Positions 1 to 52,871 of a DNA stretch of 64,000 nt are shown piece after piece. Positions within the stretch are counted from its first letter, which is position 1; every line of letters begins with the position of its first letter. The notes beneath the pieces are model-generated. The model ran no database searches. It worked only from the letters and a program-made list of their open reading frames with translations, and was not told the origin of the DNA. The position numbers were made by a program, and so were the translations under genes. Source of the stretch: Lingula anatina (Eukaryota; Animalia; Brachiopoda); assembly GCA_051362555.1 (NCBI GenBank), contig CM120640.1:71092788-71156787 (forward strand), given 5' to 3'.

Positions 1-2360
1 CTGGGCCTCCTTAGTGACCTGTCCACCCAATGTGTCCAGCACCAGGTCAAACCTAACAAAATAAACCTTCCAGGTGACCCTGTTCTGATATATATATATA
101 TATACTACTATTATAACACATTGGTTTTCATGCATAACAACATACAACTTGGTATCACATGTAAAATTTTGGCATACAGGCACAAATAATTTTTTTCTTC
201 ATTTTGCTAAATTTAAGTAACTTTTTCTTGCATTTTTAAGCAACAGAAAAATACAATTAAAAATCAAAATGAATGCGAAAGGTCTTTGCCTCATGATAAC
301 AGGCTATTAGAAAAGAAATGGAGCTGATTCAGTTCAACAAACTCTTCTTCAACTTTTTCCTCCTTTGTATCAAAATGTTCCAGAAACACATGATAAGAGA
401 TCATATGTATTTCAATAGCTCCAATTTAGTACATAACTGGGAGTGTTAGAACTGTGGTGGCTGTAACAATGTCACCTACCCTGACAGCCGTGTGAGTTCT
501 TCAGTGACATTTTGTGTGTTGTAATCTATCACGTTATCAGCACCCAGTGACAGCAACAGAGGCACTGCGTCGGTGGAACAGGTGGTTGTCACCTCTGCAC
601 CCCAGGCTTTGAGGAGCTGACAGAGAAATAATGAGAATAAATATCTATTGAGGGAACGTACTAAGTATGGGCCACATCTTTAGATGTTTACAGTGTGTAA
701 TCTTAGAACAATTAAAAACCCAGTATAGCAAAATGAGTATTTTAATACTCATACCATATTTCCACCTGTGCTTGGTTTTCTATTACACTGCTCAGTGTGA
801 TGGTTTTTTATTCACTTACTTGTATTGCAAAAGTTCCCACTCCCCCTGAACCTGCATAAATCAACACCCTGAAGGAGGATAGAAAAGATTAAAACATTTC
901 AATCGTTTTCAAACTCAATTTTTAGTCTTCCCCAAAACAAATTCCAAGGTGTAAACATATGAAACTGAGGATTTGATTTAGAAGGTATAAAAATTTACCT
1001 TACTGTATGTGGGTATGTGACAATTAATTTTTTTTTTTGAGTATTTCAAAAATGAAGACTAAGAAAACCCTCCTTGCTCTACCTTTTTCCTGCAGTATTG
1101 TGTTCATTCAGGCCTCCAATGGTAGAAACTGCTGCCCACGTTGTCATGGCAGCATAGGGTATGGAGGCTGCTTCTATATGAGACAATCTCTTGGGTTTCA
1201 GTGAGATCTGAGAACAGAAGTTGAACCATAATATAGATAAATATGTCATCTGTAGGTAGGTAGTCTTCAGTCCTCTTGTGGTTACTAATACTAACTCATA
1301 TTTCAGTTTTCTCAATGAGTTTGGTTAAATGGTCATCAGTATTACTCCTGAACCCTCACCTCACTCTCTGATGATACAGTGAACTCTGCATGTGCTCCTT
1401 GTCTTTGGGCACCAAGGGCTCCCCACACCTTGATTAAAAAAAAAGATCTTATCACTTAGATAAAAATATCTCAGTTTTTGTTACGAGTGCACCATTACAT
1501 GAAGTATTGTATTTTTATTCTGCCTTAATTTTTTTTACTACATGTTCATGACTTTTAATAAGGCTATCCTAATTAAAAGGCTCTAGGAACTGGCCATCTC
1601 TGGCAGACAAGGTGTTAATCTACCTCATCTCCTGGTTTGAATCTCCTCACACCCACTCCTGTCGCCACCACCACACCTGAGAAGTCCCGGCCAAGAGACA
1701 GAGGAAACTCTGACCCAGAACTCAGTGAGCATCGTAGCCTTCTGTAGAAATTTAAAATACTGGATCCATAGCCAGCTGAAATATTTACAAAATCATCGGT
1801 GAAAATTGACTACAAATTGCATCTTCTGCTCACAAACAGCAATCTCTTTACAGCACATCATCAAGTACCCGGTATTAGGAGGTAAAAACTGACAGTTCAA
1901 TTTATCTCAGCATTCATTATACAATTATTTAGCTGTAGTGATATATCATGCCCTTAAACACAAGGCTTGCACATCATGTCAGAGAAATGTAATCTTATAA
2001 GAGTATCAATTTATTCTATATTTAAGTGAAAAACCTTTTCTCTAAATCTATACCTCTCATTCGTACATCAATGGGATTGACACTGGCAGCGTGGACCTCT
2101 ATTAGCAGTTCATCTGGATTCCTAATCATTGGTGTTCTGTGCGTTTTTGTCAGTTCTAGCTCCTCATTTCCTCCATATCTGTGAATCTGCCAAGTTGCCA
2201 TTCTGCCAGGAATCCGTTTACTGAATGCTCGGCATTGCACAGACAGTACACCCCCGGTTCTTCTCCACACACGAGGCACCAGTTCACAACACGAAGGGTG
2301 TCTTAGCTTGCAGCTGTAGTGCAGAGACCTGCTTAAGGATGTGCCCAGTGCTTTACTCAT
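1..2360 (-). CDS. RTN4IP1: Reticulon-4-interacting protein 1, mitochondrial NAD(P)H oxidoreductase (MDR family); 5' seven coding exons, gene continues beyond position 1
   Basis: GT-AG exons 2360-2054, 1775-1624, 1428-1360, 1207-1083, 868-820, 616-480 and 52-<1 splice in frame. Motifs: Arg-rich transit-like N-terminus, VHAASVNPIDVRMRAGYG, EFPLSLGRDFSGVV, EAASIPYAAMTTWAA, nucleotide-binding VLIYAGSGGVGTFAIQLLKAWGA, LGADNVIDY, FDLVLDTLG. Confidence 0.95.
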
Positions 2361-2892: not shown

Positions 2893-5800
2893 ATGATGCT
2901 GTCAAGTTCTTTGAAAGAGGTGGTGCATTATTTGTGTGGAAAGTGCAAGCAAAAATGTAAAATGCACTTGATGCACAAGGGCTTTTGTAATGTCTTATTG
3001 CTATTAACCTTAGTAAACACATGTAAGCCTTGACAATTCGCCATTGCTTCAAGTGCTTGTACATGTAGAAGAACCTATGTTAAATTTAAGAAGGAATTGG
3101 TGTGTGAAAATTACACCCACATGGTCCCAAAAAATATCAGAGCTTACTTCTGCAAATTACATGTGAGCGCCCACAATCTCTCTATTGAACGGGGCAGGTA
3201 CTGCAAGCCAAAAATCCCTGAAGAGTTGAGATTTTGTAAACTTTGTGATTTGAATAAAGTAGAAGATGAGTTCCACCTCCTGCTAGAGTGCAAAGCATAT
3301 GATTCAATAAGAGATCCTTTCAGAGGGCAGCTGTCAGAGTTCCTACCCCTAGGCGACCTCAGCAATAATGAACTGTTTAATTTTCTTATGGGTGCTCTGG
3401 ACATAGATATTCTTAGAATGGTCATGTGTTTTGTAAATAGATGCTTTCAACAGAGAGAACAGGCCCTCTCTTAATACATTGTACTCTTTCCAATTTATTT
3501 ATTTAAATTCATCGCCTATAGATTATCATTATACATTTCATATATATATCTTTTTTTTTCTTTTAAGTTAAAACTAACTTATTGGTATTGATATACATGT
3601 AAACATTGAAGTCATGTATATTTATTCATTTTCTTGTTTGTACTGTTATAGATGTATTGTCTTTGATTGCATGTACCTTATATGTGAAGGTGTATCAATA
3701 AAGAACCTCTATGTTTTGGGGTTGTATAAATACTATTCAGTAAAATATTACTGTAGCTATACACCCTAGTTATAAGGCAAGTCGCTCTGTTTTACTGTTA
3801 TATTTAGTTTACATCTCAGATCTTTAAACAGTAGGGAAATGGCTAAAAACTAATTTTTCCACATTTTCTACTTATTTATGTTTTAAATTTTGTAATACCT
3901 GCCATTAAAATGTAAAACAACATTTTGTAGGATTACATACCAGTGTATTGTGCAAGTAACAAATTAATGCAGCTTTGTTATGTTTGCATTAAGAATTATT
4001 TTCATGAACTGTTATTTACAGATGGTCTGTTGCAGGTAATAAACAGCTTACGTAATGGCAGTATTCAGAGCAAGGAGTTGTGTGAGAAGTGTATCAGACG
4101 TGTGCAGAAGACCAGAGAACTGAATAGCTTCATCACAGAGACACTAGATATTGCCAGAAGTCAAGCTAGTGAGTCACAGGCAAGACAGCTATCAGGTAGG
4201 TCCGTAGACAACTTACTGTTGCTTTTTAAACTTTAAATCTAATATTATGTTATCTGGCAACAATTTAGAGTTATTCATGAATTTTGGCTTGGAGTCTTAA
4301 TTTTTCTCAGAAAAAACATTTCTCCATATTTGTAATCGTTTTCCTGACCCTGTTTTGCTTTTGGATTCGATGTTAGTTTTTTTTTTGCTACTTTTAACTT
4401 AAGAACTTACTCCTAAATGAATCATTTAGGCTACCATTAGTTTTCCAGATGTTTCAGAATCTGAAAGAAATATAGTGTCATGCCCTTTTATTTGAGGAAT
4501 TTTCATTCTTGTAGGCCTGAATTGGGAAAGATCTCCGTGGGATATTAAGACAGAGATATGACTTTGGAACATTGATTATTGGATAATAGTTATATTTAAA
4601 GTTTATGGAGATTGGGGATTATTGTTTATGATAAGTAAAAAATTTTTATTGTAATCAAGCACCCCACTGCCACAGTGATTAGGTATAATAAATTTATTAC
4701 CGAAAGAATGCAGTAAACAAAATTATGATAACAAAATGTAAGAAATTGTTTATACTACCGTAATATGTGTACATGTACACCAACAAATAAATCACCGATA
4801 TTACTTTGGAAACATGTTTTCACATAATCTGTTTGATTGCTCATTGTTCCAAGAATTTCTATTAAATAATATTTAAGTGATAATAGTCACTAACTTTAAC
4901 ACAAAATATATTTATGAAGCAGCTATGTTTTGCTCTTGTCATGCTCAGCCTGATGATGCTCTTGTAATTATGTATTTCTACATTCTGTTAAATTAAATCT
5001 GAGGCAAGAATCCAAAGTTTTTCTAGGTTGTCTGTCTATATCTGTAATGTGCACATTTTCCAGGCTCCCCTCTAGGTATTCTAGATGGTGTCCCAGTCGC
5101 TGTGAAAGACAACTTCTCCACCTTGGGCGTGCAGACATCTTGTGCATCTGCGATCCTCAAAGGCTATGTTCCTCCTTATAATGCTACCATGGTACAGAGG
5201 CTGCTGGACCAAGGCGCTGTCATGATGGGAAAGACAAACTTAGATGAATTTGCTATGGGGTCAGTAAGCACGTGTGTGTTTGTGTGGTAATATGTCATGG
5301 TATTGAAGAGTTTTTGCAATTAGGGTGGGAGAGGGGGATACAAAGGACCGTCGCTGTAAAACTCTGAATCAAAATTTGATCTAGGCCCCATGCCATTTCT
5401 CAAGTAGGATCAGCCAAGGGGCTATATGGCCCACTTTTACAGAAAAGGAACCTGCTCTAAAATGGGTGGCTGTAGGCCTGATCATTTATATCTTAAATTT
5501 GCCACTGTGACTGAAGTGTTACTGATTGTTGATTTGCAGGTCAGGCAGCCTGGACAGTGTCTATGGACCAGTGAGGAACCCTTGGAAGTATACTTTTCAA
5601 AATTACGAGGCCAACAAACAAGACGACCTGAACAAACAAAGTTTAAGATGTTCAAATGAAGGAAATAGTTCAAATCATAAAAACAATATGCAAAGTGAAA
5701 TTATAAAAAATTCTGATGGTATGAACAGTCAAAACAGGTCATCTGATATTCCTGAAGACATGGATGTCAGTGACACGAGGTCAGAAGAATGTGATTGGTA

Positions 5801-8800
5801 CGTGAGTGGGGGCAGCTCAGGAGGCAGTGCTGTAGCCGTAGCAACAGGGACAGCTTTTGCGTAGGTTTCTAGTAGATTCAGATGAATGAATGAATTTTAC
5901 TGTGTAATGTTTATGAACATGGATAATATCAGACCCAGTTTAAATGATTCTGTCAGTGTATTATAAACAGAATAACTTGCATGTTGTCAGAAGTTTAATC
6001 CATCTCTCTTTGGGACCTATGTGAACTTAAATCTCTTTATTTATTTAAGATGCACATTTTCATATTATGTTGAATATCAACTTTTCATTTAATAATATTA
6101 GTATTAGTGATAGAAGAAGTAATAATTCAAATGATGGAATGAAGTGCACTTAGCAGATTCTCTTCCAGAGCGCTGGGTTCTGACACGGGAGGTTCAGTGA
6201 GGATTCCCGCCTCCTACTGTGGTGTTGTGGGCTTTAAACCCACCTATAGCCTGCTGTCCCGGTATGGACTGATACCTTTAGTCAATTCTCTGGACGTACC
6301 TGGGATTTTAACCAAAACAGTAGATGACACTGTGATCATGTTAAGTGAGTGCTTTTAGAACCTGTGTTGTTTATGAAAATCATTAATTCAATGGTGCGTG
6401 TACTCTGTCTTTCTCATATTGTGCAAATAAACATTATTGATGTAAGTTTTAATAGTAAACAGTGCAACAAATCAAAGCTCATCATTTTGTGAAGGTCAAC
6501 ATCGTATGAAGGTGAACAATTTATAAGGGTCAACATTGAATGAAGGTCATCATTTGTCACACCTGTTACAGATGTTTTAGCTGGCCATGACATCCATGAC
6601 TCCACAACTATGACTGACCCCTACAGACCTGTACTGGCTGTTGATTTTCCTGAGAAAATTTCTCTAAAAGGATTGCACATAGGAATACCAAAGGTATAAT
6701 TACGGTAGCTGTTACATTTTAATAACATTATTTCTCTACGTCAAGCTTGGGATTTTGAAATAAGATTTAACACATTGGATTTTGAATAAAAATAAAACTA
6801 TAATTCTGATAACTACAGCTGAAGTTTAAAGAGAAAGAGAAAAAATAATAGTGGATATACTAAGTCACGTGGTTGTTGGACATAAAACAAACTTAAAGTG
6901 AGCTACATGCCCTTAATCTCACTGTTATGCCCCTCAACTTTCTCTCTTTTAGGAGTATCATGCCCCTGGTCTGGCGTCTGATGTTCTGTCGGCCTGGGAC
7001 AAAGCCGCTGACCTGTTTGAAGCTCATGGCGCCACAGTAAGTGAGGTGTCTCTGCCACACACTCGCTTCTCCATCGTCTGCTACTCTATACTGTGTGCTT
7101 GTGAAGTCTCCTCCAACATGGCAAGATATGATGGGATTGAGTTTGGTTAGTCTGTATTTTTTAAGACTTAATAATAATAATAATAATAATAATATATAGT
7201 GTCAAAAGATATAGTTCAATTATGATAGCAATCAGCATAGGTCTAACTGGCCTCTGCAATTCAAAATGATACGTTGAGTTGTTTAATTAGTTATCTATTG
7301 ATTGCCATTTAAGTATTTATTTATGATGTTGGAAACTTGTGGAGGTTGTATTGGAGTGATGGGTGCAATAGGAATGAAATGAACCAGCTGTTTTGTGGAC
7401 GTGCACAGCTGTTTTGGGGATGTGCATGAATAGTTGTAGATTGACAAGTGCATGTATTCCAGTGTAATCACAACCTTATGGGATTTGGAAATTTATTTTA
7501 TGTCGGGAAATGTATAGTCATCGCCTGCATTTTTTGTCATCATTAGCATCCCAGCTAGCATTGCCATTGATAAAATTATTCTTTACTTAGAGACTAAATG
7601 TGTTTGATGTTTGTTATTTAGTCTTTTAAGTAAAGAATGATTCTATTTTATCATCCTATCTAGAGATGATGAAAAACCTCTTTCATAGTAGCATTGTCAT
7701 TGTCATGCACTGTCCTCCTTAACATCATAAAAACATTTATATGTCATATTGTAATAAATATTGACAAGAAAACATTTTGTGCACTGTCAGCATTAACACC
7801 ATTATTGATACCAGTAAAAGGAAGTCCATGTTACTTATTATTCTCAATTTTTTCCCCAAGGATTACAGCTCAAGTTAATATCCAGTATTATTAGATTATT
7901 TTTTGTGATGTTTTGTGCCTCCATTGCAGGTCACAGGGCACAGAATGCTGACACGTCCACAGAGGCTTTGTATGCTGCTAGCAGACACGAGGGCTTTAAT
8001 GATGTCGTCAGGGGGAGAATCTTAGCAGGGAACTATTTTTTACTTAATAAGTAAGTACTGGTCTCATAGTGCTGATACAGCATACCTGCTTAACAAAGGT
8101 TTAGCCAGCAAGCTGCCCACTTGGTATTTGTTAAAGAAATGAAGGTTTTATACTACATGTATGAAAAGTTAAAAAAAAAGAATATTTTTGTTGGAATAAG
8201 AGGAATAAGAATTGTGAATGCCATTATATTCTTCACTATGGAATAATTATTTTATTTTGTATAAACTAATTTCAGAAACTATGACACTTATTTTATCCAA
8301 GCGCAGAAGGTGCGTAAACTGATCAGCGAGGACTTTGCCCGCGTGTTCTCCGCGGGTGTGGATGTACTACTTACCCCTACCACACTGACCTGTGCCCCTA
8401 AATATAGCTGGTATAAGAGAGAAGACAACAGAACTAGGACAGAACAACAGGATGTTTTTACTCAGCCAATCAATATGGCAGGTAATGGGTCTAGGAGCTA
8501 GCTGTAGTCCACTTGTATATTCATTATTTACATTATTTGATTGAAAAAAAAGTGATGCACTCAAATATGACCCTTCATTTGTACATTAGAAATATCAGAT
8601 TGATGTCCAAAAGTCATAACTTGCACCTTAGAATTTCACAGAAGAGATCCAATTTCAGCAGAAAAATGGTATACGAGAAAATTATAAAACAGACAAAGAG
8701 CCAATGGTTACCACTGTTTCATTTCTCTTCAGGCCTGCCTGCGGTCAGCGTGCCAGCCTCACTGTCAGATGAGGGCGTACCCATAGGGCTACAGTTCATT

Positions 8801-8905
8801 GGACCAATGTTTAGTGAACAGAAACTGCTCACGGTAGCAAGATGGTTTGAACAGCAAGTGCATTTCCCTAGGCTCAGCTTGGATGGAATTCTTGGAGATT
8901 TATGA
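2893..8905 (+). CDS. QRSL1: Glutamyl-tRNA(Gln) amidotransferase subunit A, mitochondrial (GatA), complete, 10 coding exons
   Basis: Exons 2893-2919, 4036-4195, 5064-5259, 5540-5860, 6169-6344, 6572-6693, 6953-7145, 7930-8050, 8276-8481 and 8733-8905 have compatible phases. Amidase motifs [60 protein letters not shown]; GatA motifs [50 protein letters not shown]. Confidence 0.97.
3060..3480 (+). mobile_element. 3' fragment of a non-LTR retrotransposon (RTEX/CR1-like C-terminal zinc-knuckle region) in QRSL1 intron 1
   Basis: ORF 3097-3474 contains [10 protein letters not shown]...[20 protein letters not shown], typical of a LINE ORF2 C-terminus; no RT core present. Confidence 0.75.
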
Positions 8906-11900
8906 TAAGAAGAAAAATTAGGAGGAGACATTGGGTTTATTCACATCAATATTTTGTGCTGAATTTTTAAAAAGTGCTATTAAAAGTAATCTTGCTTTTG
9001 AATTAATCTCTTGTTTGTTTGAATTGGTTTTCTGAAAAGCATTCTGGAAAGTGTAATATGTGGGCATTAATTTACTTAAAAACAACAACAAATTTTGTAA
9101 GTTAAGGGCAGCAATTTGATTATTCTAAACTGAGACTCCAGGGAGCTTATTAAACGCTGACATACTCAGTACAAAGAAGAATATGAAAATAAAGATTGAT
9201 GATATGTCTGGCACTGTTTCACATATCAGAACAGACTAAGTATGTCATCACAGACAGACTAAATTATATTGATTCTTCTTTACAAAATAATCTGTTGCCC
9301 AACTAATTAAAACCTGTTCATGGAAAATGTTTTAGCAATTGTCTTGAGCTGTATTTCATCATGCTGTGGAAAAGGTTGATTTTTGTTTTTTTGATTAGAC
9401 TCCAGGTTTCATGCTGCTGTAACCTGGCTTTGTAGAAAACCAAGACACTCCTGTCCCTCATTTTATGTGTTATTGATTTGATCCAATAATATGAATGCTT
9501 GAAATGTCTTTTCATGCTGAATAGAATTGTGTAAATATTCAGATATAACTCTCACATCAATGGAAATCAAATCTTGAGCTCTACTGGTCAGAAACAAAGA
9601 ATTGTCAGCTGTTTGCCAGAACTACGAATTACCTTTAACAAGCATATCTTGTTAATTTACTCAGCCTATTAATACCCCTCCTGCTAAGGTACTGTACATG
9701 TTTCATAATCTGAAACCTGAAAATTTATATGTGATTATTGCTCTGTCTTCCGATTCTCAGGCTCTACATGTAATTTAGTTTGAAAAATAATAGCATACGT
9801 TGAAATGATTTTTGTGCAACTTGGTTAAAAAATCTCATGGCAGTGAGGTTTTCTGTCATGATTTTAACAAAGCCAATCACCGCTAGAAAAAAATGGAGTC
9901 ATGTGTGTTCCACTGCAGTATCCCATAATACTCTGCAATTAATTCGAAAAATGAATCAGTGCAGTTTGAAAAACGAATTACATGTGAGATATCTGTCTGC
10001 TTCCCCAGAAGGTGTTATCAAGAGTTCCACACCCCCATGCAAACACCTGGTGTTAAAAAGCTGTCTTATTTGACATAATCCCCATGTTATGTTAATTGAT
10101 CTATGGACTTGGTCATTGTGAACAATGTTGAGCACCTGTGTTAATATCTGTGGAGTCTGTACAGTGCATGATCAATATGGAACATGCATGTAGTACATTG
10201 TATTGATTATTGTTTGTGGCTTTGTTTTGTGCTGTCCACAAGTAATCACTTATTAAGTATTGGGGGGGGGGGGGGGGGCAGGATGGACAGACTTTGATTG
10301 CTTGAAGAAGTGACAGCCTACATATTTATATACCAGTAGTTGTATACAATAGTGCAAACTGAAGAGAAAAAATCTGATTTATTGTTCTAGAAGAGATCCA
10401 TTTGTATTAGTTACATTAGCAGTGCCTGGATATCCATTCAATTTTGTAGGACAAGGATCAATGTTTTGCAGATAATAAAGCCCACTACCTAAATAATCAG
10501 ACATGCAAGACTGAACTTAGTGAGAGAGGATTTCCCTTGAGTTCTTCACTCTACATTAATGACACACATTTCACAGTCTACATGGGAAACATTTTCAGTC
10601 AACTTGTAACAGCTCAAATTAGAACATATTCCATGTTTTAGACCCTTTATCATAAGATAATTTAGTTCTAATTAATGACTGGCCATCATTTAGACTGCCA
10701 TTGTCTTGCTGGTCATTTTGGAAGGAAATATGGAGATCTGGTACTCTTTTTTGGGAGGTTTTAGCTTTTTTTAGGTCTAAATTGAGAAAGTTTTTCAGGA
10801 CATGTAGATATAAAAAATTTAAAGGATATATGTTATCTAATGCTGCTTAAATACCTTTGAGTACTTTCCACTATTTTCACTCAAGTTTGCCTTAGGTCAC
10901 TGAAAATTACTCCTTTTTCATTGGAACAGAGGTGGCTTTCTACATTGTAGCTAGTGGCTTTTGAACCCCAGGGAGCTAAATGGTCCCTTTCAATTAAAAA
11001 TTGGGGCAAACAGACTGTGGACATCTGCCAATGACCCAGACATGTCTGGAGAAGAATCTATAAGTGATGTCCATCATCTGATTAATCAATTTACGTGTAC
11101 AACTACGGCAAATCGACCAACTGATTTTTACCCGGTGACTTGATTAGAAATGGGCTGTAGTACCTTGTATGTATTGATTGGTCAATTAACTATTTCCTGT
11201 GTTATAAAAGTGATTGATCAAAGTTGTACAGTAATCAGGCCGTCTAAGCCATAGATTTATATATTTTTTTGTTTTTCTGGCTTGGAGAACATCTGCACTA
11301 AGAATTCTCTTTGCTCAATTTTAGCAAATTGTTATGAAGATATGGAAATGGTATTTGTCATTTTATACTAGTCTGATAGAGTTACTCCAGGAATTATCAC
11401 AGTCAAGTGTACTGCAGTGTCTGGCAGAGCTCAGTAAATGAGATCAAACTCACTGCAGGTAACTTCCAGCTTCACTGTCAACACTGATCAATACCTGTTA
11501 AGAGCCATCGTCTCAGAGAGGAAACATGGGAGTTAAAAGCTGAAGGGTTTTATGTAAGCTGAGATTTCTATTTGCGCACACTTTTCACTTTCAGTTCTGA
11601 AGTCTAAGCTTGCCTTCAAGTAAAACCCTTCAGAAAATATTTTACTTTTTGTAATTAACATTGTCCAAACCCCACTCTACATTACAACATAATAACAATA
11701 AAGATAAATAAAATAAAATTGCCTATTTGCTTTAAGTTATGCCAGAGTTTTAAGTACATCATCTCTTCAGCACAATGTAATAAAACATACTGGTACTTTT
11801 AAAAAATCAATAATCAAATGTTCAAAATGCTGATGTTGGTGCATAGAAAATGGGGGCCAATGTCAGTTACATATGGGTCCTAATGGAATGAGACACATCA

Positions 11901-13898
11901 AGTATTAACTGCTATTTTATTAATGCTGAACGGAGATATGATTGAAATACATCGGGTGATTTCAGTTTTCTTTTATACTTGACTCATCTGGCAGAAAGAG
12001 TTGGTTCTATCTCCAGGAAGCCTTATGTTTATAAAGCCAGACAAATCATCTGATCACTGCTGGGTGCCCATGTAATCCCTGTAGCAACAATTATTAAACG
12101 TGTTCACATTGTTTTTTTTTTTGTTTGTTTATCTTAAATTTATTGGCAAGTTTTATTTGTTATAATCTTGTTAGGATTTACCAAAATTGCCGTAAAAATG
12201 CAGGTCAGGTTAAAAAACCATAGTAATTGGACAATACACTGATATAAATGCAATTTTGTTCTGACATTTGATAGAAAATGTTAAAAATGTAGTGACTGGA
12301 CTGTTATGTGGGAAATATGTAAATTTCCATGGACAATTTCCCCTTCAGTCGGTGTTATGATTAGAATAAATGAAGCGTAGAACAAATTGACAGATTATTT
12401 TACTGTACTACATGAACCACCCTCATTAAATATACTTGCATTTATTCAAGTCCATATTTTCTGTATCATAGCTTGCAATCTTTATTATTCAAGACTCCCA
12501 TGGATACTTTTCCTCATTTTTTTTACACTTAATGTCAGTATACCTGTACATGTATGAGCCAGCTTTGGGGGCTTTTTATACCATATGCATTCATAATACT
12601 TAAAATATCAATATGATACAATGTAGCCATGCTAACCAGTGGGAGAACTGAGACAAGAGATAGCAGTAGGACAAAGAACATTTATTCCAGATATGCAAAT
12701 GTGAAAGCCGGCAGCTGGCAAGTGAGGATCAATACAATAGGATACTGAACATATTCAAGGAGACAAAGCGATAAAATCATTTGAAATTTCCATCCATTTA
12801 AACAATTAAGAAAAGCTACAATCCAAATCAATTTGCTTCATATAATCGTATCTGTTCGTTTCCTAAAGGTTGAATTAATGGCTCATTGTCATCCCTGAGA
12901 GCAGAGAATGTTCTGGTGGTGCTCATTCCCCATGTTTGTAGCAGGTTTGGTCAAGTGGCTTGGAACGCTGGTCAAGCATGTTATGTAGCCATATATTACA
13001 GCATTAAGAAACGACAGTGCTATAATTAGATAGCGGAATCTCAACATTCAAAGTTCAGTTATTTAAGAACTGAATATGTTCTAAGTACATTACAAATTGC
13101 ACACATTTTTTTTGAATAAAAAAGGTTTTGTTTTACATTCATGGAAAAAAACAGTATGTACTATTAATAAAATATAAGGGAATTATCACTTTTACCTGTA
13201 AAACAATAAGTTTTTCTTGACAATAAAATGTATCATTTTAAAATCTATGACAATATTAAAAATAAGTTATAAAAATACCATGAAAGGCTAAAAAGGAACA
13301 TTTTTTGCTGCTTTCTGACATTCTATGAACAGTTTTATTGTTAATTCTTGAGAGAAATGCTGTTAAATTAAGTGGCTGATAGTTCAAGTACCATTCATTC
13401 ATTCTCTTTCACATAAATATGGTGCTTCAAATCAAACGGATATACCCTTGTTATCAAGAGGGGAGCTTAGACCTGTTATTACTGTGTTCTCTGTGGTTGG
13501 TGTCCATATTGACTGTTCCCGGCAGGTATCTTCCTCTGGTCTTATGGAGATCTATGTTACTACATGCTGACTGCTCAGAGCCTGTAACTTCCTGTTGTCT
13601 TATAAAGAACTTGTATGTTAATTTAAGCTACCTGCAGGCTGCACCTGAACAACAACAACAACATGTCTGCAGCAAAAACGGTTCCTTTTGACCTGGAGTG
13701 CCTCCACTGAGGTGTAGATCGAGTCTGTTGTACATCACATTGTAGCACATCAAGATTTGTTCACACAAGCCTGGTCCAATTAATATATACTTTCTGGGAT
13801 GTTCCAAGCTGTTAAAGCTAAAATGAAAAAGAAATGGTTTGACAAAGAGGCCCAAACATAGAATCTCAATCAGTTCATGCACACAAGCACATCTCACT

Positions 13899-14000
13899 CC
13901 CCTTAGGAAAAAGTCCTATAGGATCCTATTAGATCTTATAAGATCCTTTAGGAAATTGGGGCAATTTCCTACAGAACCCTATAGGATTTTTTGGTAAGGG
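13899..14000. mobile_element. Small palindromic MITE-like element
   Basis: CCCTTA...TAAGGG ends with internal CCTATAGGA palindromic subrepeats. Confidence 0.45.
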
Positions 14001-14275
14001 TCACTGAAAATATTCAATCAATGGACAACATTTAACACCTCATTTCACCATAAATAAAGAAAGCGGTAATTAAAAACAATTTATCACACATGCCTTAAGT
14101 TTTTTATCTCAATTATCTCAGTAAAAAAATGTTTAATGGAGCTGATGACTTTACTTGCTGTATTTATATTATATCCATGTATACACAATTAAGGCAGGAA
14201 GTCAGTCAAACATTCTGTTGCCATAACTACCATGACACAGTACCTGAAGTGAAGGAGGTCACATAGCGATCAGTC

Positions 14276-17139
14276 TTAATGAAACAAAGCGCAGAGACTG
14301 GACATGGCGGCCACCAGGACGGCAGTCAGGACAGTACTATAACTGGACACTGGACCCCCAGGAGCAACGGAGCCCGTTGTATTGTTTTGCTACAACAACA
14401 AAATATAACAGTTTTACCAAAAAATGTATACTGTGATATACTTAAAATTGATAATATGATATAATATTTTCATACCAGTACATGCACCTCATTAAAATCT
14501 GTTACATTTTTACAAAATTATATAATTTTCATTTTTGCTACAATACCAAAATAACAGTTTTACCAAAAAAAGTATACTGTGATACTGAAAATTCTACAAT
14601 ATTATATATTTTCATACCAGTGCATCCACCTCAATAAAATGTTACATTTTTACAAGTAATATTTATGCTTGTACATGTTTCTATAATCATGCAGTACATG
14701 ATACACCACTATTATTTAAAGAATATTCGATGATGACTTACAGAGATGTCAGAAAGTAATAAATCTGAACATTTTAAAGAGCTGTAAGATATATATGTGT
14801 GTTTTCAATCAAGTTGGGCTAATCTGCCTTTTGGAGGTTTTCTGGTATCTCACAGCTGTCATTAAAACACAGAGGACACTAAGAGTTAACAGACCCCCCT
14901 CCCTCTCCCAGCTAGGTCACACCATGGAAGTACAATTAGGATGTTAATTATCATACCTAAGTATTCAAGTGAATTCAATTTGCCTGGAAACTGTCTCTAG
15001 CTCTGAAGCCAGGCAGTGCATTGATCTTTTTGTATACTTATATATATATACACTGTATATTCATCAATTATTCAAGTGCCTCCTGCTTACTCCATGTATA
15101 GTATGACAAATGTAATGGATTGAAGGCTGTGTGCCTGTTCAGTGAGTTATGAGACAATGAAATTGTAGCTTTAAAAAGACTTCTCCATTAGGTTATCATC
15201 ATGTATATCAATATAAATTTAGTGCCAGGTACATAGGACTCTTATATATGACTCTGTTTACAAAATGTTATCACTGTCCTCACATCACCCTGCTTTAGAA
15301 ATACAGTTGTAATAATAGCCAATTATGTCTCGCCATAGAAAAGGTTTAGCACATACATGGACACTGGTTTTGTTGGCACTGTCATATTATTATTGTTTTG
15401 TTATTTGCACACAAGGCCCAAGGCACCGTGTCTGCCTCAGTAAAAGACATCTGTCTTCTTATCATGTTTTTTTCCCTCTAGGGCTGGCTTTGTAATGTGG
15501 AGCCAAATAAAATTTCAAAGGCCAGACAAACACTCATAGATATTCCAATCACAGAAAAAATTATTCTGACATTGTATTATTTGCAGATAACACACTAGAT
15601 TTTGTTTTTGTATCTGAATGGTGTTCTTTTACCTGGCTGCCCCAACAATGAACTCGACTGTAAATCTATATTGCTCATCTTATATGTAATCATGTCAACT
15701 GAAATGATCTACTTTTTATGCAGACTGAGTAACATTTATCTAAAAGCCATCATACTGTACATGCCCCAGTGAGACAACTTTGCTGTAAGTCACCCAGAAA
15801 ACAGGAGCTGATCAATATTTTGTGACAGTTCACTTGGCCCTAGTGTCAGGACCATGTTTTGTTGGGGGTGAGTCACTCCCACTACAAATAAACATGAAAA
15901 AGATACATAAAACTTGGAATAGGATAAGAGCTGGTTTTTATCCTCTACAGTTGCACGCCCATACCAAACAGTTACTGCATAAGTTAAAATACTTTCTAAA
16001 ACACACCTATAGAAGTTTGTTATTTAAAATAGACACATTCCTGGTAAAAGCTTTCAGTTTCCTCAAAAAGTACATTTGCCGTCTTGTCCTTTTTCAGTAG
16101 TTTTGTGGTGTTATCACTCCAGTTTAGTCTATTGTTCAGTTGGACACCCAGTAATTCATATTCACAGACCTGTTTGACAGTTTTGCCATTAATTTCTATG
16201 GGACTTTTACAGTTCTGGTGTCTTCTATAGTCTACAGTCTTCTTTTGTTACCTACCATTGGTTAGTGAAACCGTTTTGAAATTAATTTTTTCCATTTGAA
16301 ATTTGGTTTATTGTTATTATCTCTTAAGACTTTTTTATCACAAAAATATCCCTATCTATGACGGCCCATGGGGTCTGATGGCAAGCAAAGATTCCAGAAT
16401 AATTGCAAGTACAGACTTCAGACTGAGTTGTTTATAATGCATGTTGTTAAATATGAATCTCATACAAATTTAAGTTATTATCCCTTTAAAAAGTGTCAGG
16501 GCATGATGCTACCACTAACCATAATGGGCTATTATCTTGATATAATAAGATTTCTACATATAAACTAAAATATTTTCGGTTAGATACAGGCCCCCAATTG
16601 TGAAGTGAACCAATCTTTTTTTTTTTGAAAAATCTTCTTTTTCCTTTTTTTTTTACACCAAAATTACAAATATTGTAAAATTATAAAATCATAAGAATTA
16701 TAAAAGTGCACTTTGGACATAATTTCAAATTAAAATGTATAATATATATAATAATATATGCAAAATATTTATATAATATGCAAAATATTTTATTAATTAC
16801 GGCACCCATTGAAATTCATACTGGCGCGCCATCCGATCTTTTCAAAACTTTATTTCGCGAAATCTATCTTTATTTCTAGTAACTGTCATAAAAAAGTATC
16901 GCACAAGACACGCGATAATACCTGCCACCATGTATATTGCGCACGAGCGGAGGTAATATCAACATGCGTATTGCGCACCGCTTTCATTCTATCATACCTG
17001 CCAACCAATAAATGAGATGTAAATGAATTAAAGACACTAACATACATAAATAAGTATATATACTTACTGCTAAGACATAGACAGTGTTTGTGGCTATTAA
17101 AATCACCACAAATAATGCAAGATACAGCTGTCGATACAT
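14276..17139 (-). CDS. 61-aa CD24/CD52-like GPI-anchored micro-glycopeptide precursor (signal peptide, short mature peptide, hydrophobic GPI-type tail)
   Basis: Exon 1 CDS 17139-17068 (context CAACAAC-ATG; MYRQLYLALFVVILIATNTVYVLA; donor GCA|GTAAGT). Exon 2 CDS 14389-14276 (acceptor ttttgttgttgtag; QNNTTGSVAPGGPVSSYSTVLTAVLVAAMSSLCALFH*). Phase-0 join. Candidate 3'UTR intron 14243-13809; minus-strand AATAAA near 13335 and 12681. Confidence 0.75.
14386..14655. repeat. Imperfect direct duplication (about 140 bp) of the intron 3' end next to micro-gene exon 2
   Basis: tttgctacaa..aaaat..taacagttttaccaaaaaa.gtatactgtgata..ttttcataccagt.cat.cacctca..tgttacatttttacaa occurs twice (about 14386-14516 and 14533-14655). 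Confidence 0.8.
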
Positions 17140-18330
17140 GTTGTTGTAAGGCGAGCTAGGTTGTAAAAAGCGCTTTTGTTCCTCACTCTCAGCTCTCAGG
17201 TAGCGGTGGCGGGAGGAGAAAGAAGGCGTGTCGGGTGCCACGAATTTCGAGAATGTTAGAGACTTTAGTGAGAGATATGTCAACCTTGAAAATGTGTACA
17301 TGAATACTTCATTAGTATTTTCTTGATATATGACAGCAAAAGAATTGTATGAATGCCATACGTCTACGAGAGTTTCCGCATCTGTGCGCTGCTATATTTT
17401 ACCATTCTTTATTTTTTATCATATCCGGCTGTCAAAATGGAACACGTGCAGCTTCCTTGTTAGTAAACAATGCTCTCTGATGATCTGACATTGATGCATA
17501 AAAACAGTAATCTATATTATTCATTAGATAACGTACACAGCAGGCGTTATTTGACTAGTTCTTCAGAAATGGAAACCTTACAGCTGCAGTCTGTACTGTT
17601 AATTTTTGCCCACTAAAATTGACGGAGAGAAGGTTGAAGCTGAAATTAGAAAATAGCAATTTTTTACTAGGACGCTGATTACAGGACGCTAGGACGCTGA
17701 TGCTTTTTGAAAAAATGAGACACAAAATACACAAGCTTTGTGCTTAAGCCTTCTGGGACACACTTTTACTGTTTACCTTTAAGTATTATTTAAATAAGTA
17801 TAACAAACTCCACGTCCGTTTTCAAATGTACATGGTAATGTTGATTTTGACAAGATGTTATACTGGTATGTACCAGAATATGTGGCACTACTACATTTCA
17901 ATTGCTTTTTATGTCTGTTGTCTGTAACCTTTTGTCTTTGAGGATTCTTATACATGTAAAATTTATGCTGGAGTCTCTGGGCATATTCTTTGAGCTTTGA
18001 TTCTTACGTGATCTCACTGTCCTATATATGTTGACATGCTAATAGTAGCTATAGTTAGGTTATACATCGTGTGTCTTTAACATATGTTATAGGCAAAAAT
18101 TTCTTTTTGAAATAATTTAAATCTCGCCCTTATAAGCCGGACATGTCTGTATGACACACCTTTCAATTATATCTTATCTTATCAATTCAATTACATTTTA
18201 GTTCACATCTTTAGTTCATATCTTACTATTTTAACCACCTTTTCAATTATTTTAGTTCATCTGATTCTGTTCATTTTACCCATGTAAAGTCTACTGAACA
18301 TTTTATATATGGATTTTAGACTATAAATAA

Positions 18331-18331
18331 A

Positions 18332-18368
<37 letters not shown>
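18331..18368. repeat. (TAT)n microsatellite
   Basis: About 12 TAT units read directly. Confidence 0.9.
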
Positions 18369-19209
18369 TCAAACCATAGCTGTTAAAAATTTTGTTTTTA
18401 GTTCCCATACATTCACCGAATACTTCCAAAGTACGAAGGCCTACCCGTATGTTGCCTGAATCAAACATGTGACTCCCAAGAAAGTTTTTTCATGTAAAGA
18501 TTTCAGTCGGAGAATCATGTTCATTAACATTGCTGTTGTGAACAACCACGATATCAAGTGAGTTTTTAAATGATATCCAAATGTTACTTATTTTCAAGTT
18601 TCACAATTCTGTTTCTATTTGATACTGGTTGTCAAATTACTTATCTGTGATATATTTCTTTTGCTTAATCTGTGTTACGTTAGACCTATACATCGAATGT
18701 CAAGAATTAAATTTTAATTTAAATATCTTTTAAAGTTAAACAAAATATAGAGACTAACACTTATTTAGAGGGAATTTTAGAAGTTATGTGCCTGCTTACA
18801 CTGCATTGGTTTTCCATTTAATAGTACAGGTGTGGGTGTAGATTCTCCTTTTCTCTAAAGTCTGACATTGCTATTTAGAAATAAGCCTTAATCCATCCTT
18901 TACAAGTAATACTTAAAATGGAATTTTACGTGAATTCAAAATCAACGTGTGTGACAAACAAAATCTTTAAAAATTGTACATCATTTATATAAATTTTAGA
19001 ACTAGACATATTACTCAGCAGGCATTAAAACATTTCAGCTAGGGTGATTTGTTAGGTAGATTTTGTCTCTGGCCTTCTATTCACAGAGAAGGTGTGGAAG
19101 ACATGATAGAGAGTTGATTCTTACTCTTAGAGATTATTTTAGTTTTCTCGGTGTGCTTTAATGTATTGAGTTGATATCTGAATTCTATTCAAGTACCACA
19201 AACTGCAGA

Positions 19210-21165
19210 ATGAAGATGAAGTTAAACATGATGGTCGTGGGTTTCTATGTTGTCTCCATGACAACAAAAATGTAAGCACTTGTGGTCATGATCAAATCTC
19301 TCTCTCTATCAGTGTATTGCTTTTCGTCCTTAATTCAGAGGTCTGTTTAAATCTGCTGAGATGGTTTTAATTTTTTTAATTAGGATGTATTTATGCTCAA
19401 TGTAGGATGATTTTGAAGTGCACAAACATTGTTTCACTGCTAAGGATTAATTTATAACACAAAAGATCATTCTGATGATATGCATCAGTTTCATGAAATG
19501 CTACTGTTTTGGTTCCTCATCAATGTCCAAGAACACAACAACGCCACACTTGCAAATTCCTCTCAGAAAGATTATTTGAATTTCACATGACATTGTTTTA
19601 GGGATTGTGCCCCTGTTAATGGCACGAAGCCTCAGCTTACAGCGAGGGAGATTGGGATATTGGTCTGCGATCCCACGGACACCAATAACGATGGCATCCT
19701 CACTAAACTGGAATGGGTTAGTGCAATGGCTAACATGGACTTTGACCGTAAGTTTTAGCATGTCTTGTCTGCAATAGTTATAATTAAGAAGCATAACTTC
19801 AGCTGGAATTTGTAACTGAATCTATTCTGGAACTTTTAACTGAATCTATTATTTAATAAATTTCTTATAATACCAAAAAATTTAGCATTGCACAAGATGA
19901 AGATGTAAACTCATACAATGTTGCATTATCTGAAAGAATAATTTCGTGAATCGATTGAATGTGAAATATAGATTATTGCCAATACCCATTATTCTTTGGG
20001 TTTTCAGACAATGATGAAGTTACGCACAGTGAGTTGCTGAGATATCTGGTCAAACTGGATAGCAGATTTCGGCCACTGTGGTCTCGTGCAATCTTTGAAT
20101 CGATTGATTTTGATAAAGATGGAGTACTGACAGAAGATGATATGTTTAAATTTGGGAAACTAGATGCCAATGGTGAGTGTTTCTTATGTCTAACATGGTC
20201 CCGTTTCTCAAACAACTGAAGAAGAACGCACTCTTTGCCTAAAACACAAATATAGTGTTTATAGTTGAATAAGGATATTAACCGTCGATCAAAAACAAAA
20301 TGTTCCTAAGTGTTCGTAATGACATTGCTCACATCATTAAACATCTATATCAACTAGAAGTAAATATATGTGTATACGACATGGCACAACGCATAAAATG
20401 ACAGTTGTTTATCTTATTCAGGAAATGGACAGACAGACAAGGATGAATGTATTGAATTATGTGAAAAGGTATGGTTGGTTTTGAATACCATTATTACTGT
20501 GAAAACAATCGCTCTTTTTAACTGTTTGAATCAGTCCAGTTGGATATATGTACCTCTAGTAGTGAAAAAGATTTTGTTACCTCTTGAAAGAATCTATAGA
20601 TAGGATTAAATACCCAACTTAATCAAAAATTAATATTGGGAGATTTAAGATAATTTTATCTAAACAACCACCATTCATTTTTTTTTCTGACAGCAAGCGC
20701 GTTTGACTTGGCTGCCATTAGGTTCGAGTCAGTGTTTGAAACCGTTATAGTTCATAGAAACCGAAAGTCTTCAGTGATTTTAAAAGCTTATAAATAAATG
20801 GGTTTATATTTGTAATGAACAGTATTTCAAAAAAATTTGATTAATAATTTGGTTCTACAATATTGTTTCAATTTAAGCTTTTGAAAAAGTACGACCCCAC
20901 GCTGGAGTAAACAGCTACCCACAATATTTGCCATAAGTGGTAAGTGCTGAATATGTGACACCTGTATTTGGCATATGTATCAATATATAGATAGATATCT
21001 GATGAAATATTTACATATGCAGTAGATTAGGTAAAATATATAGTACGTATTAGACTGAACTCCCAAAAGAAAACATATTGGTTTCAATCTTTTTTTCCTT
21101 TTCAGTTCCAGTTTTTAAGAAGACATCATGGCAAAAAATATAATGATGAATCATCAGTAGTTTGA
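19210..21165 (+). CDS. Putative secreted four-EF-hand calcium-binding protein
   Basis: Exons 19210-19271 (MKMKLNMMVVGFYVVSMTTK, signal-like), 19602-19747, 20008-20172, 20422-20468, then 21106-21165 (or 20694-20750). EF loops DTNNDGILTKLE, DFDHNDEVTHSE, DFDKDGVLTEDD, DANGNGQTDKDE. Possible upstream in-frame exon 18517-18557 after a TCAGT initiator-like motif. Confidence 0.85.
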
Positions 21166-21883: not shown

Positions 21884-22110
21884 GGGTGCTTTCCCAGAGA
21901 TTTAGATCGATCTAAAAAGTAAGTTTTAGATCGACCTAACTCCCTGGGGGTTCACGCTAAATTGCAGTCAGCCGAGCGGGCACCATAGTTAATTACCCCC
22001 TTACAGCTTTTAGTAGGCAGGACAGACGCTTTAGCCAGCCAAGCTGACAGTAATCTAGTGAGACTCCCCACAGGGATAGATCGATCTAAAAATCTATGGA
22101 AATGGGGTGT
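21884..22110. mobile_element. MITE with TAGATCGATCTA-containing TIRs; related fragment at about 63925-63990
   Basis: tttcccagagatttagatcgatcta ... tagatcgatctaaaaatctatggaaa are imperfect inverted repeats. Confidence 0.6.
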
Positions 22111-24987: not shown

Positions 24988-27900
24988 TTACAACAATATA
25001 CACTGGAATAAAAAAAAGGAAAAAATTACACAAGGAATTTTAATCAAAGAGCAAAAAGAGTAAGCATTTTCATTTTGTTTCTAGGTTGAATTGTTCCTAA
25101 CTAAAAGATATCATTTCTAGAGTGTTGTGGAATTTTTCTATGTGTACAAAACACCCATTATAAAAATGTAAGTAAAAGTCATTAAAAAAGATGGCAAGCC
25201 AACTAAGAATATGTCGGCTTTGCATAGCAAATGACCAAAAATTCTTACTTTATCATCTTTCTTCTTATGTTCCGTATCATGCCTTTCCCGGTTAGCAGCC
25301 TCAAACTGGCGTTGTAGATGGAGCTGGTTTTGTTGCATCTGCTGCTGTCTTCGGGCATCTCGCCTCTGTTGGGATGAGTCTGCACGACGGTTTTCTTCCT
25401 CTTGCAGCTGCATTGCCAGTTGAAGGCTACAACATTAACGGACAGACTTTTTTCAAATTAAGTCCACATTTAGAAGACTGAAATGTTAAAGCAAATACCA
25501 GCACCCAGATGTGTTAACAGAAACTGTAACAGAAATATCGATATATTCACTGGGAGATGTAAATATTGGTTGGGGATGGGCTCAATTTCTTTCATAAAAA
25601 TGCAAAAACTAGCACCAAAATCTGGAAGATTCTACAAAATCAATTTTTGCTCAAACTCAATGGGCAGGATCCTCTCAGATTACTAAGTTATCCATCTCTT
25701 AAAACTGACAATATGTGATTGACCTTTGTCAAGTAATGCAGATCCTAGTCCACTGAGATTAAAAAAAGATTGAGGCATCATGTTGTAAACAGTTAGGGTT
25801 CATCAACAATTTGCAACAAATGTCTCTTTGCTTCACCTTAATGCGATTGAGATATTTAGAGGAAATCAAATAGAAATTAATGTCAAATTATGGTCAATTC
25901 ACCAACTGCTAAATAAATAAATAAATAAATAAATAAAAATACACAAGTCTAAAATTGATCTTTTGACTGGTCAGCACAATTCTTGAATCATGTAAGATTC
26001 TCAAAACAAATAAAGCATCATAAAAAGAAAGCTAATAGAAGCCTCACTCAGTCTGCTCTGTAGATTCCTGTCCTGGCGACCATGTTGAGGCTGGTAGCTG
26101 ATCCGCCTGGTCTTGCTGTAGAGATAATGCCACCAGGTAACTGAAATATACAGCACAGTCTACTTCAGTCACATATAACACACCTGTGCCACGCCCATGC
26201 TGGGAGGAGGGGGGTGAGGGAGGGGGGTGGATATGTTAACTGAAATATACTTCAGTCACATATAACACACCTGTGCCACGCCCATGCTGGGAGGAGGGGG
26301 GTGAGGGAGGGGGGTGGATATGTTAACTGAAATATACTTCAGTCACAGATAACACACCTGTGCCACACCCATGCTGGGGGGGTGGGATTGGGGGGGGGTG
26401 GACGTAGAACACAGTGGACTACAGTCACACATAACACACCTATGCCACGCCCATGCTTGGGGGGGGGGGGGAGGGTGGTAGGCACCCTGAGCTTCAGAGC
26501 TAACTTGACACTAACCTTTTCACTGTAGCCTTTCTCCATCGTGTCAAGTAACCTCTGACGAAAATAGTTTGACCTAGTTTATATAAGCCAATCGAATCCG
26601 TTTCAAAATTTTTCACCAAAGTTTTGTGAAAACGCTGATTGGTTGATCGTCAATCGGCAATCCTCGGCTGATTCCGCAAGCTCCATACTAACAACATAGT
26701 TATTGTCGAGTGCGGAGACATCCGAGTAGTTCCGAGTGCATAACCGTACACAAAGAAAGCATGGAGTATATCGGAATTGAAACCAGAGCAGTTTGAGGCC
26801 CTGCATCATTATCTACTGAGGGATGATGTATTTTGCGTGCTGCCCACAGGTTACGGCAAGTCCCTGATATTCAGCCTTATTTGTGATTGGTCTGGATTTG
26901 AACAAAGCGTGCTTTGACTCGTTCGCGTTCATTGGCTAGATCGTTCAATGAGTCATTGAGTGCGGGCTTTAAATTTGATTGGCAGGCGGCGGGGGCAATC
27001 GAATGTGGTCAGAGGTTACTTGACACAATGGAGATAGGCTACAGTGAAAAGGTTAGTGTCAAGTTAGCTCTGAAGCTCAGGGTGGTGGTAGGGGATGTGC
27101 AAACAAACTGGATCATTCCCCATGCTATAAACTGAGGACCAAAAATCAGAAAACACATTTTCCAGTTATGCACTTTCTACACCACTGTGTGTCTTACTGA
27201 CTGATCATAAAATAACATTTATTCAGGGTTTAAGTTCCATCAACATTTCATTCAGAGTTACCTCCACACAGTTAATGGTCAAATTTATTTAAATGTAAGA
27301 GAGCATTTATCTTTCCTCTCTTGTCTCTATGGAGTTAACCTTAAATGCGGACATCAGATAAATAATATTTCTGATCAATAACTGTACTCTAGCGATTGCT
27401 TTTGAATGTCATTCTAATGTAATCCCTCTCTATAACTTTCTGCCATGGTAATTTAATTGACTTTACAACACCAGACCTGGCAACACATTCACAGCCAATT
27501 TACATGTTGTTCATCATCATGAAACAGAGTCACCAGTTGATCTGAACAAATGCACTCTGCTTTTAACTGATAAATCAAACGGTAAATCAAAGTCTCCCTC
27601 ACTTACTACAATTTGGAGAAACAAAACACATTGTCTGCCTTATATGTATATAGGGCAAGTCTGTACAACGGAGAAAGTTCAGCCAATTACCACTAGAATG
27701 TGTTATCTGTAATATAGTTCATCAATTTTTGTAGAAATCATCAGATCCCAAGATCTGAGCGAGATATCACTGTACAAATTATCTGGTTAATGAGTCACAG
27801 AGCTTTACACAGCTCAGGAATTCAAATCTGCTGATGACAAAGATGCATGGCAGGGTTTACTAAATGACGTCAGGGGGGAATAATGAGGAAGAGAGCCGAC

Positions 27901-28120
27901 AGGAGTTCCAAACTTACTCATGGTCCACCTGGCTTTCTGGGTTTTCTGGGGATGCCTTGACTGGCCCCTGTCCAGCTCCTTGGGTCATCTCCGCCTTCCT
28001 GTAGGTGACAAAGTTACAGTTGACAAAATGGCAGTCACCCTCAACGTTGGACAGCGTCTCCCACACCACATTGCTCTCTGTCAGGAAACCCTGGTCCGTT
28101 ACCAAAACAAACAGCTCATT
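24988..28120 (-). CDS. MINDY1: Ubiquitin carboxyl-terminal hydrolase MINDY-1/2 (FAM63), last four coding exons; upstream exons not found in the window
   Basis: Exons 28120-27918 (NELFVLVTDQGFLTESNVVWETLSNVEGD), 26140-26048 (DYLVALSLQQ, MIU1), 25426-25249 (DLQLAMQLQEEE, MIU2) and 25002-24988 (CILL*, CaaX) have compatible phases. MINDY1 versus MINDY2 orthology cannot be resolved from this fragment. Confidence 0.9.
26139..26475. repeat. About 88-bp G-rich tandem repeat (about 4 copies) abutting a MINDY acceptor
   Basis: cagtcacatataacacacctgtgccacgcccatgctggg... is repeated; aactgaaatatac occurs three times. Confidence 0.85.
26483..27084. mobile_element. Non-autonomous TIR DNA transposon carrying a RecQ-helicase fragment (AcademH-like)
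   Basis: About 75-bp TIRs (CACCCTGAGCTTCAGAGCTAACTTGACAC...); TSD GTGGTAGG at 26475-26482 and 27085-27092; 26774-26872 (+) translates to ELKPEQFEALHHYLLRDDVFCVLPTGYGKSLIF. Confidence 0.8.
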
Positions 28121-52869: not shown

Positions 52870-52871
52870 AT
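52365..52871 (-). CDS. LINE ORF1 C-terminal part (L1-type RRM/CTD), 5'-truncated
   Basis: EQYSRKNNVKIYGIPE, AVHRIPG..PRPIILKL, LADDVT, AWYFNGSIY; the apparent ATG overlaps the TSD. Confidence 0.85.
   Translation of the reverse strand: MNRAMKEAAKVASSAMIKANHNEQYSRKNNVKIYGIPESESGDQTTSALVIKTLKEKIQEEVKGDDIVAVHRIPGKPGEPRPIILKLKNTEIKSRIMRKRGVLKRSDRALRLADDVTKENKDLLKLLNDHPECESAWYFNGSIYAKINGKEGKKKFDIGDDIGTKIRH

Follow-up and report, generated by a model that had tools for sequence, protein, structure and literature searches.

A 64,000-nucleotide stretch of the genome of the brachiopod Lingula anatina (contig CM120640.1 of assembly GCA_051362555.1, positions 71,092,788 to 71,156,787 of the forward strand; here called the window) carries on its minus strand a gene for a product of only 61 residues, with a predicted signal peptide, a minute predicted core and a predicted glycosylphosphatidylinositol (GPI) attachment signal. 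The gene is real; by its sequence it follows the plan of CD24 and CD52 in minimal form, and it is probably the protostome counterpart of these two molecules. Both have so far been traced only in vertebrates: CD24 serves as a 'don't eat me' checkpoint and marks stem cells, and CD52 is targeted by an antibody drug. Their small size and rapid evolution put them out of reach of sequence searches. An initial annotation of this DNA had offered a likeness to their architecture only; this likeness is supported at the level of sequence, and the placement of the gene after RTN4IP1 and QRSL1 suggests actual homology to CD24 and CD52 beyond it. On balance, we regard the Lingula gene as a likely invertebrate positional pro-orthologue of both.

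Gene, transcript and selection on the reading frame

The reading frame starts with an ATG at 17139 (minus strand) and runs through 72 coding nucleotides to 17068, where a GTAAGT donor follows; it resumes at 14389, behind a T-rich acceptor ending in TAG, and continues for 37 codons and a TAA to 14276. The two parts join in phase 0 and give a product of 61 residues, so that the two short minus-strand exons of the initial annotation hold exactly, in coordinates and translation. Its count of exons holds for the coding part only, as a third exon, from 13817 to about 12640, was found in the 3' untranslated region (UTR). The transcript is laid out as follows:

17068..17197, minus strand: exon 1, with the 5'UTR and 24 codons (17139-17068) for the predicted signal peptide; its ATG is the first of the mRNA, with none upstream
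14390..17067, minus strand: intron 1, GT-AG, phase 0, 2678 nt long, placed exactly where the predicted signal-peptidase cut behind Ala24 falls
14402..14640, minus strand: tandem duplication at the 3' end of intron 1, its copies set about 145 nt apart and giving rise to a near-identical decoy acceptor at about 14538
14244..14389, minus strand: exon 2, with 37 codons (14389-14279), the stop codon (14278-14276) and 32 nt of 3'UTR
13818..14243, minus strand: intron 2, 426 nt, GT-AG, within the 3'UTR, beginning 32 nt past the stop codon
12640..13817, minus strand: exon 3, some 1.2 kb long and all 3'UTR; its lower boundary, read from 234-nt depth bins, is approximate

The gene is spliced and strongly expressed. 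RNA evidence comes from seven raw-read runs (X1, X2, X3, X5, X6, X8 and X9) of the ten listed under the same species label. The coding junction 14389/17068, which had been proposed for a check by RNA-seq, occurs in six of the seven (263 reads in X2, 221 in X3, 187-188 in X8, 117 in X9, three in X5 and one contig in X1), with none listed for X6, where depth is about 2; per million records this corresponds to 11-21 junction reads in X2, X3, X8 and X9, versus 0.3 in X5 and 0 in X6. The level differs among studies; in X2 it comes to some 175 reads per kb per million records. Two of the runs, X2 and X3, are stranded, and over the exons their first mates map to the plus strand only, which fits a minus-strand RNA. 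The joint of the UTR intron, 13817/14244, is covered by 164 reads in X2, 140 in X8 and the X1 contig, and by none in X5. Depth over intron 1 is about 1 or less, save over a repeat at about 15900-16600, and no joints into this intron are listed in the runs examined, neither at the decoy acceptor nor elsewhere; thus no internal coding exon is seen that would yield the larger protein envisaged as an alternative in the initial annotation. The repeat itself attracts low-identity reads with loose ends and looks by eye like a decayed fragment of a long interspersed nuclear element (LINE), with no Pfam match to a reverse transcriptase; a short repeat inside intron 2 (13900-13933) likewise attracts reads from elsewhere.

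At the 5' end, molecules end at 17184-17205 (the X1 contig reaching up to 17195), giving a 5'UTR of about 45-65 nt; at the 3' end, an AATAAA at 12686-12681 fits the end of the transcript, and a second AATAAA lies at 13339. In the resulting mRNA model of 1.49 kb, about 88% of which is untranslated, the 61-codon frame is the longest open reading frame (ORF) and starts at the first ATG. An unspliced ORF of 135 residues (16984-17391) is ruled out as the product, since the reads extend only to about 17184-17205 and are spliced at 17068. Nonsense-mediated decay spares transcripts whose UTR intron lies within roughly 50 nt of the stop codon, and intron 2, 32 nt past it, falls inside this zone; it is kept in both of the Lingula lineages described below. 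No second copy of exon 1 or exon 2 was found within the window. The 3'UTR is polymorphic for a 7-nt insertion at 13011-13012, which is carried by 150 of 499 X2 reads and by the X1 contig.

The 61-codon frame is under purifying selection. Runs X8 and X9 represent a diverged lineage (none of 1382 X8 reads reaches at least 99% identity), in which the frame is held: of 12 listed differences from the window, at 11 coding positions, 11 are synonymous, the sole nonsynonymous one being Tyr6Cys, a polymorphism in the signal region. With 26-31% of random changes expected to be synonymous, this gives a pN/pS of 0.03-0.04 (P 3e-6 to 2e-5), and in each of the other two frames only 1 of the 12 differences would be synonymous. 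Two points weigh against this result: the count covers the listed rows, 35 further table rows lying outside it, and several of the listed coding differences are polymorphisms; and the lack of indels in the coding part, taken alone, does not reach significance (P 0.27) and was dropped as evidence of selection. The divergence is also an observation in its own right. Runs under the same label are 90-99% identical to the window and carry numerous fixed indels in the UTRs (X8 and X9, positions 11000-18000), and nine exons of the neighboring QRSL1 gene are 85-100% identical, per exon, to the Lingula anatina RefSeq GatA protein; one species label covers at least two distinct lineages.

Predicted processing of the product

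Signal cleavage, N-glycosylation and GPI attachment were predicted by rule and by hydropathy. Two hydrophobic segments, residues 5-23 and 42-60 (19-residue means 2.3 and 2.0), lie around a short polar core, at the ends of a product whose only D, E, K or R residue is Arg3. The first has the form of a signal peptide with a (-3,-1) cleavage site; sites fitting this rule lie after residues 16, 17, 19, 24, 30 and 31, and the one after Ala24 falls exactly on the boundary of intron 1. The signal peptide of exon 1 would thus lead the chain into the endoplasmic reticulum and be cleaved after Ala24, whereupon Gln25 may cyclise to pyroglutamate. The two overlapping sequons noted in the initial annotation are confirmed at Asn26 and Asn27, 17-18 residues ahead of the hydrophobic tail, and probably only one of the two would receive an N-glycan.

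For the anchor, the rule asks for a small residue at the attachment site (omega), no proline at omega+1, and Ala, Gly or Ser at omega+2. Only 2 of the 10 small residues between positions 26 and 42 pass, namely Ser31 and Ser40. Ser31 fits best, with Val-Ala at omega+1 and omega+2, a polar spacer, a core of 7 residues and a propeptide of 30; Ser40 comes second, with a core of 16 residues and a hydrophobic spacer. Of the anchor sites that had been suggested before, G30/S31 or G35/G36, Ser31 therefore stands, and Gly35 and Gly36 fall away as preferred sites, having Pro37 at omega+2 and omega+1, respectively. The C-terminus thus has the parts of a GPI signal (small omega residue, spacer, hydrophobic tail, no cytosolic part), and the GPI transamidase would cleave after Ser31, or alternatively after Ser40, and add the anchor. 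The two predicted segments are:

14369..14389, minus strand: predicted mature core, residues 25-31, with Gln25, the sequons at Asn26 and Asn27 and the anchor residue Ser31, from the sequence and the omega-rule scan
14279..14368, minus strand: predicted GPI signal, with Val-Ala, a Pro/Gly/Ser spacer, an uncharged hydrophobic tail (residues 44-61) and no cytosolic segment

The predicted product is most likely a GPI-linked stretch of seven residues that bears an N-glycan, and we are confident, as far as the sequence can tell, that it is a GPI-anchored micro-glycopeptide working like CD24 and CD52. As it has no cytosolic part, it cannot signal alone. Siglecs are a vertebrate family, and the role of Siglec ligand therefore probably does not carry over to the Lingula product, whose partner would not be a Siglec. 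At the surface it might sit in rafts as a stand for its glycan, with no tail for signalling, and through this glycan bind and tune lectins or adhesion receptors in cis or in trans as has been proposed for CD24, by analogy with the 'rheostat' model of that molecule (PMC5186806).

Position beside RTN4IP1 and QRSL1

The gene order in the window is RTN4IP1 (minus), QRSL1 (plus) and the 61-residue gene (minus):

1..2360, minus strand: RTN4IP1, head-to-head with QRSL1, running off the start of the window
4009..8905, plus strand: QRSL1 (GatA), tail-to-tail with the 61-residue gene, with Amidase Pfam matches; coordinates without the first exon

The only PDB match of RTN4IP1 exon 1 is to human RTN4IP1 (2vn8, E 7.7e-10), and the best match of a QRSL1 exon is to the Lingula anatina RefSeq GatA (93%), the other listed matches being at most 83%; this QRSL1 match and those of the nine exons identify the host as a lingulid brachiopod and bear out the placement of the gene in an invertebrate. 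Between the QRSL1 stop at 8905 and the 3' end of the 61-residue gene, none of the 11 ORFs of at least 58 residues starting at 8900-12600 has a Pfam match, and no reads fall on 11000-12403 in any of four runs.

On the vertebrate side, QRSL1, RTN4IP1, C6orf203, ATG5, PREP and AMD1 are described as 'very close to CD24' at 6q21 (PMC6581687), and CD24 is among the top genes co-varying with RTN4IP1 (PMC10174766). The order RTN4IP1, QRSL1, MTRES1, BEND3 is found in a human gene list (PMC9318831), and a single chicken interval holds BEND3, C6orf203, QRSL1, RTN4IP1 and AIM1 (PMC4148213). Adjacency to RTN4IP1-QRSL1 is thus seen in the window and is given as 'very close' for vertebrates (PMC6581687). CD52 lies in a block that is paralogous to the CD24 region: in cattle, chromosome 2 carries LIN28A (minus), ZNF683 (plus), CRYBG2 (plus), CD52 (minus) and UBXN11 (plus), and chromosome 9 carries CRYBG1 (minus), ATG5 (plus) and PRDM1 (minus) (PMC12075139), prdm1 and znf683 being derived from one ancestor (PMC7662092). 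Lingula is known to keep 217 microsynteny blocks of at least three genes specifically with amphioxus (PMC4595640); RTN4IP1 and QRSL1 are not named in the 2015 Lingula paper or its supplement. Read in one direction, and with CD24 at the place that we presume for it, each vertebrate block passes from PRDM1 or ZNF683 to CRYBG1 or CRYBG2 and on to a small GPI gene of reverse orientation; RTN4IP1-QRSL1 is retained only on the CD24 side. These paralogous blocks suggest that CD24 and CD52 arose by duplication from a pre-vertebrate gene located where the Lingula gene sits.

Several points weigh against homology. A single invertebrate lineage stands behind the comparison, and no sequence similarity to CD24, CD52 or their Pfam models was found. 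The predicted core (7 residues, no more than two of them Thr and one Ser) falls well short of that of CD24 in length, and the 30-residue propeptide behind Ser31 is long for a GPI signal. The second flank differs: an EF-hand gene, a MINDY gene and then a LINE follow in the window, not MTRES1/BEND3 or UBXN11, and among 157 ORFs of at least 58 residues, Pfam recovered only the LINE and one spurious match besides the EF-hand and MINDY genes, with no sign of MTRES1/BEND3 or UBXN11/SH3BGRL3. On the vertebrate side, we take CD24 to lie between QRSL1 and MTRES1, as the next coding gene and on the strand of RTN4IP1, and presumably to have a phase-0 intron near the end of its signal peptide, where the 61-residue gene has one between its two coding exons; that gene lists of the region can lack CD24 is presumably due to missing or mis-mapped annotation. 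CD24 does not appear in the human and chicken lists (PMC9318831, PMC4148213), and no coordinates or strand to confirm its place were found in the literature, including PMC9868882, PMC11456566, PMC12519442, PMC10050752 and PMC12866310. A 2022 review dates CD24 only to before the reptile-bird split (PMC9680537), and no fish or amphibian CD24 was seen in the sources.

These points leave room for an independent brachiopod GPI-anchored micro-glycopeptide, whose likeness to CD24 and CD52 would be convergent and whose place after QRSL1 would be due to chance; we consider this doubtful. Only a single flank matches, plant arabinogalactan peptides and the small mucins of trypanosomes share the plan of signal peptide, tiny glycosylated core and GPI signal, and similarity searches found no relative: phmmer with the exon-2 peptide gave no match among 1.84 billion representatives, where an identical protein would score E ~4e-15; exon 1 with 17 intron codons gave no candidate among proteins of 22-72 residues and four among those of 73-2000, none at E<=10; neither exon peptide matched a Pfam family at E<=10, and PDB gave no match. 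These searches have reduced sensitivity, as the exons were queried separately and not as the full spliced protein, and the sequences are short and compositionally biased. The collection searched contains Lingula RefSeq proteins, so that the RefSeq annotation seems to lack the product. When metagenomes were scanned with the last exon of QRSL1 for other animal loci, 80 of 80 loci returned were gene-dense, intronless and prokaryote-like, and no title on an invertebrate or older CD24/CD52 counterpart was found in a literature whose subscription papers are thinly covered. Against convergence, the identities of RTN4IP1 and QRSL1 rest on database matches, the strand and intron phase that we presume for CD24 would agree with those in Lingula, and the paralogous CD24 and CD52 blocks point, independently, to an ancestor at this spot before vertebrates arose. 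Chance also offers little. If the Lingula gene models number 34,105 and any of 2-10 vertebrate flanking genes counts as a hit (our own assumptions, in a test made after the match was seen), the probability of such a neighbor is 1e-4 to 6e-4 per gene, so that 0.006-0.03 chance neighbors are expected if 50 tiny GPI genes are examined; for 500 such genes the expectation rises to 0.06-0.3, which is less favorable to homology. Asking for a matching strand as well halves these figures.

We consider it improbable that the product has no GPI anchor and is instead a two-helix or tail-anchored membrane microprotein or a secreted short glycopeptide. Both of its ends are hydrophobic enough to span a membrane, there are several (-3,-1) sites, and the omega site is predicted by rule only. 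Nevertheless, the C-terminal helix has no charged or polar segment behind it and is preceded by a small-residue omega site and a Pro/Gly/Ser spacer, the end of the signal coincides exactly with an exon boundary, and if both helices remained uncut, the sequons would, by the usual distance rule, lie too close to the membrane for use. Hardly credible is a non-coding or regulatory RNA with a long 3'UTR, a UTR intron and an incidental short ORF, for which the largely untranslated transcript and the absence of the protein from all collections searched might speak, as the listed differences are synonymous in the coding frame only, this frame is both the longest and the first, and Rfam has no match in 9000-19000.

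In sum, we do not assign the 61-residue gene to the CD24/CD52 family, and homology is likely. We lean slightly towards a fuller account of this homology, in which CD24 and CD52 are whole-genome-duplication twins of a gene that stood beside RTN4IP1-QRSL1 in the last common bilaterian ancestor, a gene first represented among protostomes by that of Lingula, a seven-residue glycan stand predating Siglecs and adaptive immunity, with equivalents lying unannotated after QRSL1 in many invertebrates. The bilaterian block of RTN4IP1, QRSL1 and a small GPI gene would have been duplicated in early vertebrates; of the two copies, CD24 would have kept its neighbors, and CD52 would have remained beside CRYBG2 with RTN4IP1 and QRSL1 lost.

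The rest of the window contains several further features. The small, multi-exon EF-hand gene (about 19200-21150, plus strand; EF-hand_6, E 7e-4) is divergent in orientation from the 61-residue gene and has a possible signal-peptide exon near 19220-19270. The 3' part of a MINDY1/2-like deubiquitinase gene lies at about 25100-28200 on the minus strand (PF04424, E 1.8e-11), with a GC-rich tandem repeat of several units of about 90-110 nt in one of its introns (about 26140-26470, by eye). Between the two genes, at 21893-22092, is a cluster of short inverted and direct repeats with 58-nt arms, resembling miniature inverted-repeat transposable elements. The LINE, a non-LTR retrotransposon, is near full-length (47778-52895, minus strand), with an ORF1-like frame and, after it, two overlapping frames for endonuclease and reverse transcriptase. 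An ORF at 55044-55313 (minus strand), without a Pfam match, ends like a signal peptide and is perhaps the first exon of a secreted protein.

Comparison with CD24, CD52 and other small anchored glycopeptides

CD24 (heat-stable antigen, human 6q21) resembles the Lingula product in consisting of a signal peptide, a short glycosylated core and a GPI signal with no intracellular part (PMC9680537, PMC9990587, PMC5186806), and in being encoded close to QRSL1 and RTN4IP1 (PMC6581687). It differs in its mature chain of 27-32 residues with many O-linked and several N-linked sites, versus the 7 (or 16) residues predicted in Lingula (PMC9680537, PMC9990587), in the absence of detectable sequence similarity, and in its ligands: these comprise Siglec-10/G, selectins and L1CAM (PMC5186806), of which Siglec-10/G is vertebrate. 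The spacing differs as well, with about 10 kb from the end of QRSL1 to the start of the gene in Lingula versus what we take to be some hundreds of kb to CD24 in mammals.

CD52 (CAMPATH-1 antigen) is closer in size, as we take it to have a 61-residue precursor and a core of about 12 residues with one N-glycan near its start; the Lingula core is predicted to be shorter still and begins with Gln. CD52 sits in the block paralogous to the CD24 region, ZNF683-CRYBG2-CD52, on the strand opposite to CRYBG2 (PMC12075139); in contrast to the Lingula gene, its neighbors are CRYBG2 and UBXN11, not QRSL1, and no sequence similarity was found here either. If the homology is true, it joins CD24 and CD52 as duplicates and pushes their family back to the bilaterian root, the place to look for counterparts in any animal genome being just downstream of QRSL1; and it raises the role of such a glycan stand before there were Siglecs, for which L1CAM- and contactin-type proteins are candidate partners.

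The arabinogalactan peptides of plants and the small surface mucins of trypanosomes likewise have a minute glycosylated core flanked by a signal peptide and a GPI signal; they differ in that their cores are O-glycosylated and rich in hydroxyproline or Thr, that they form multigene families, and that the organisms are unrelated. With them as examples, it is clear that evolution can reach this design more than once. Even without orthology, the Lingula gene is well expressed, under selection and new to the protein collections searched, with a predicted seven-residue GPI product that would be smaller than the core of CD52.

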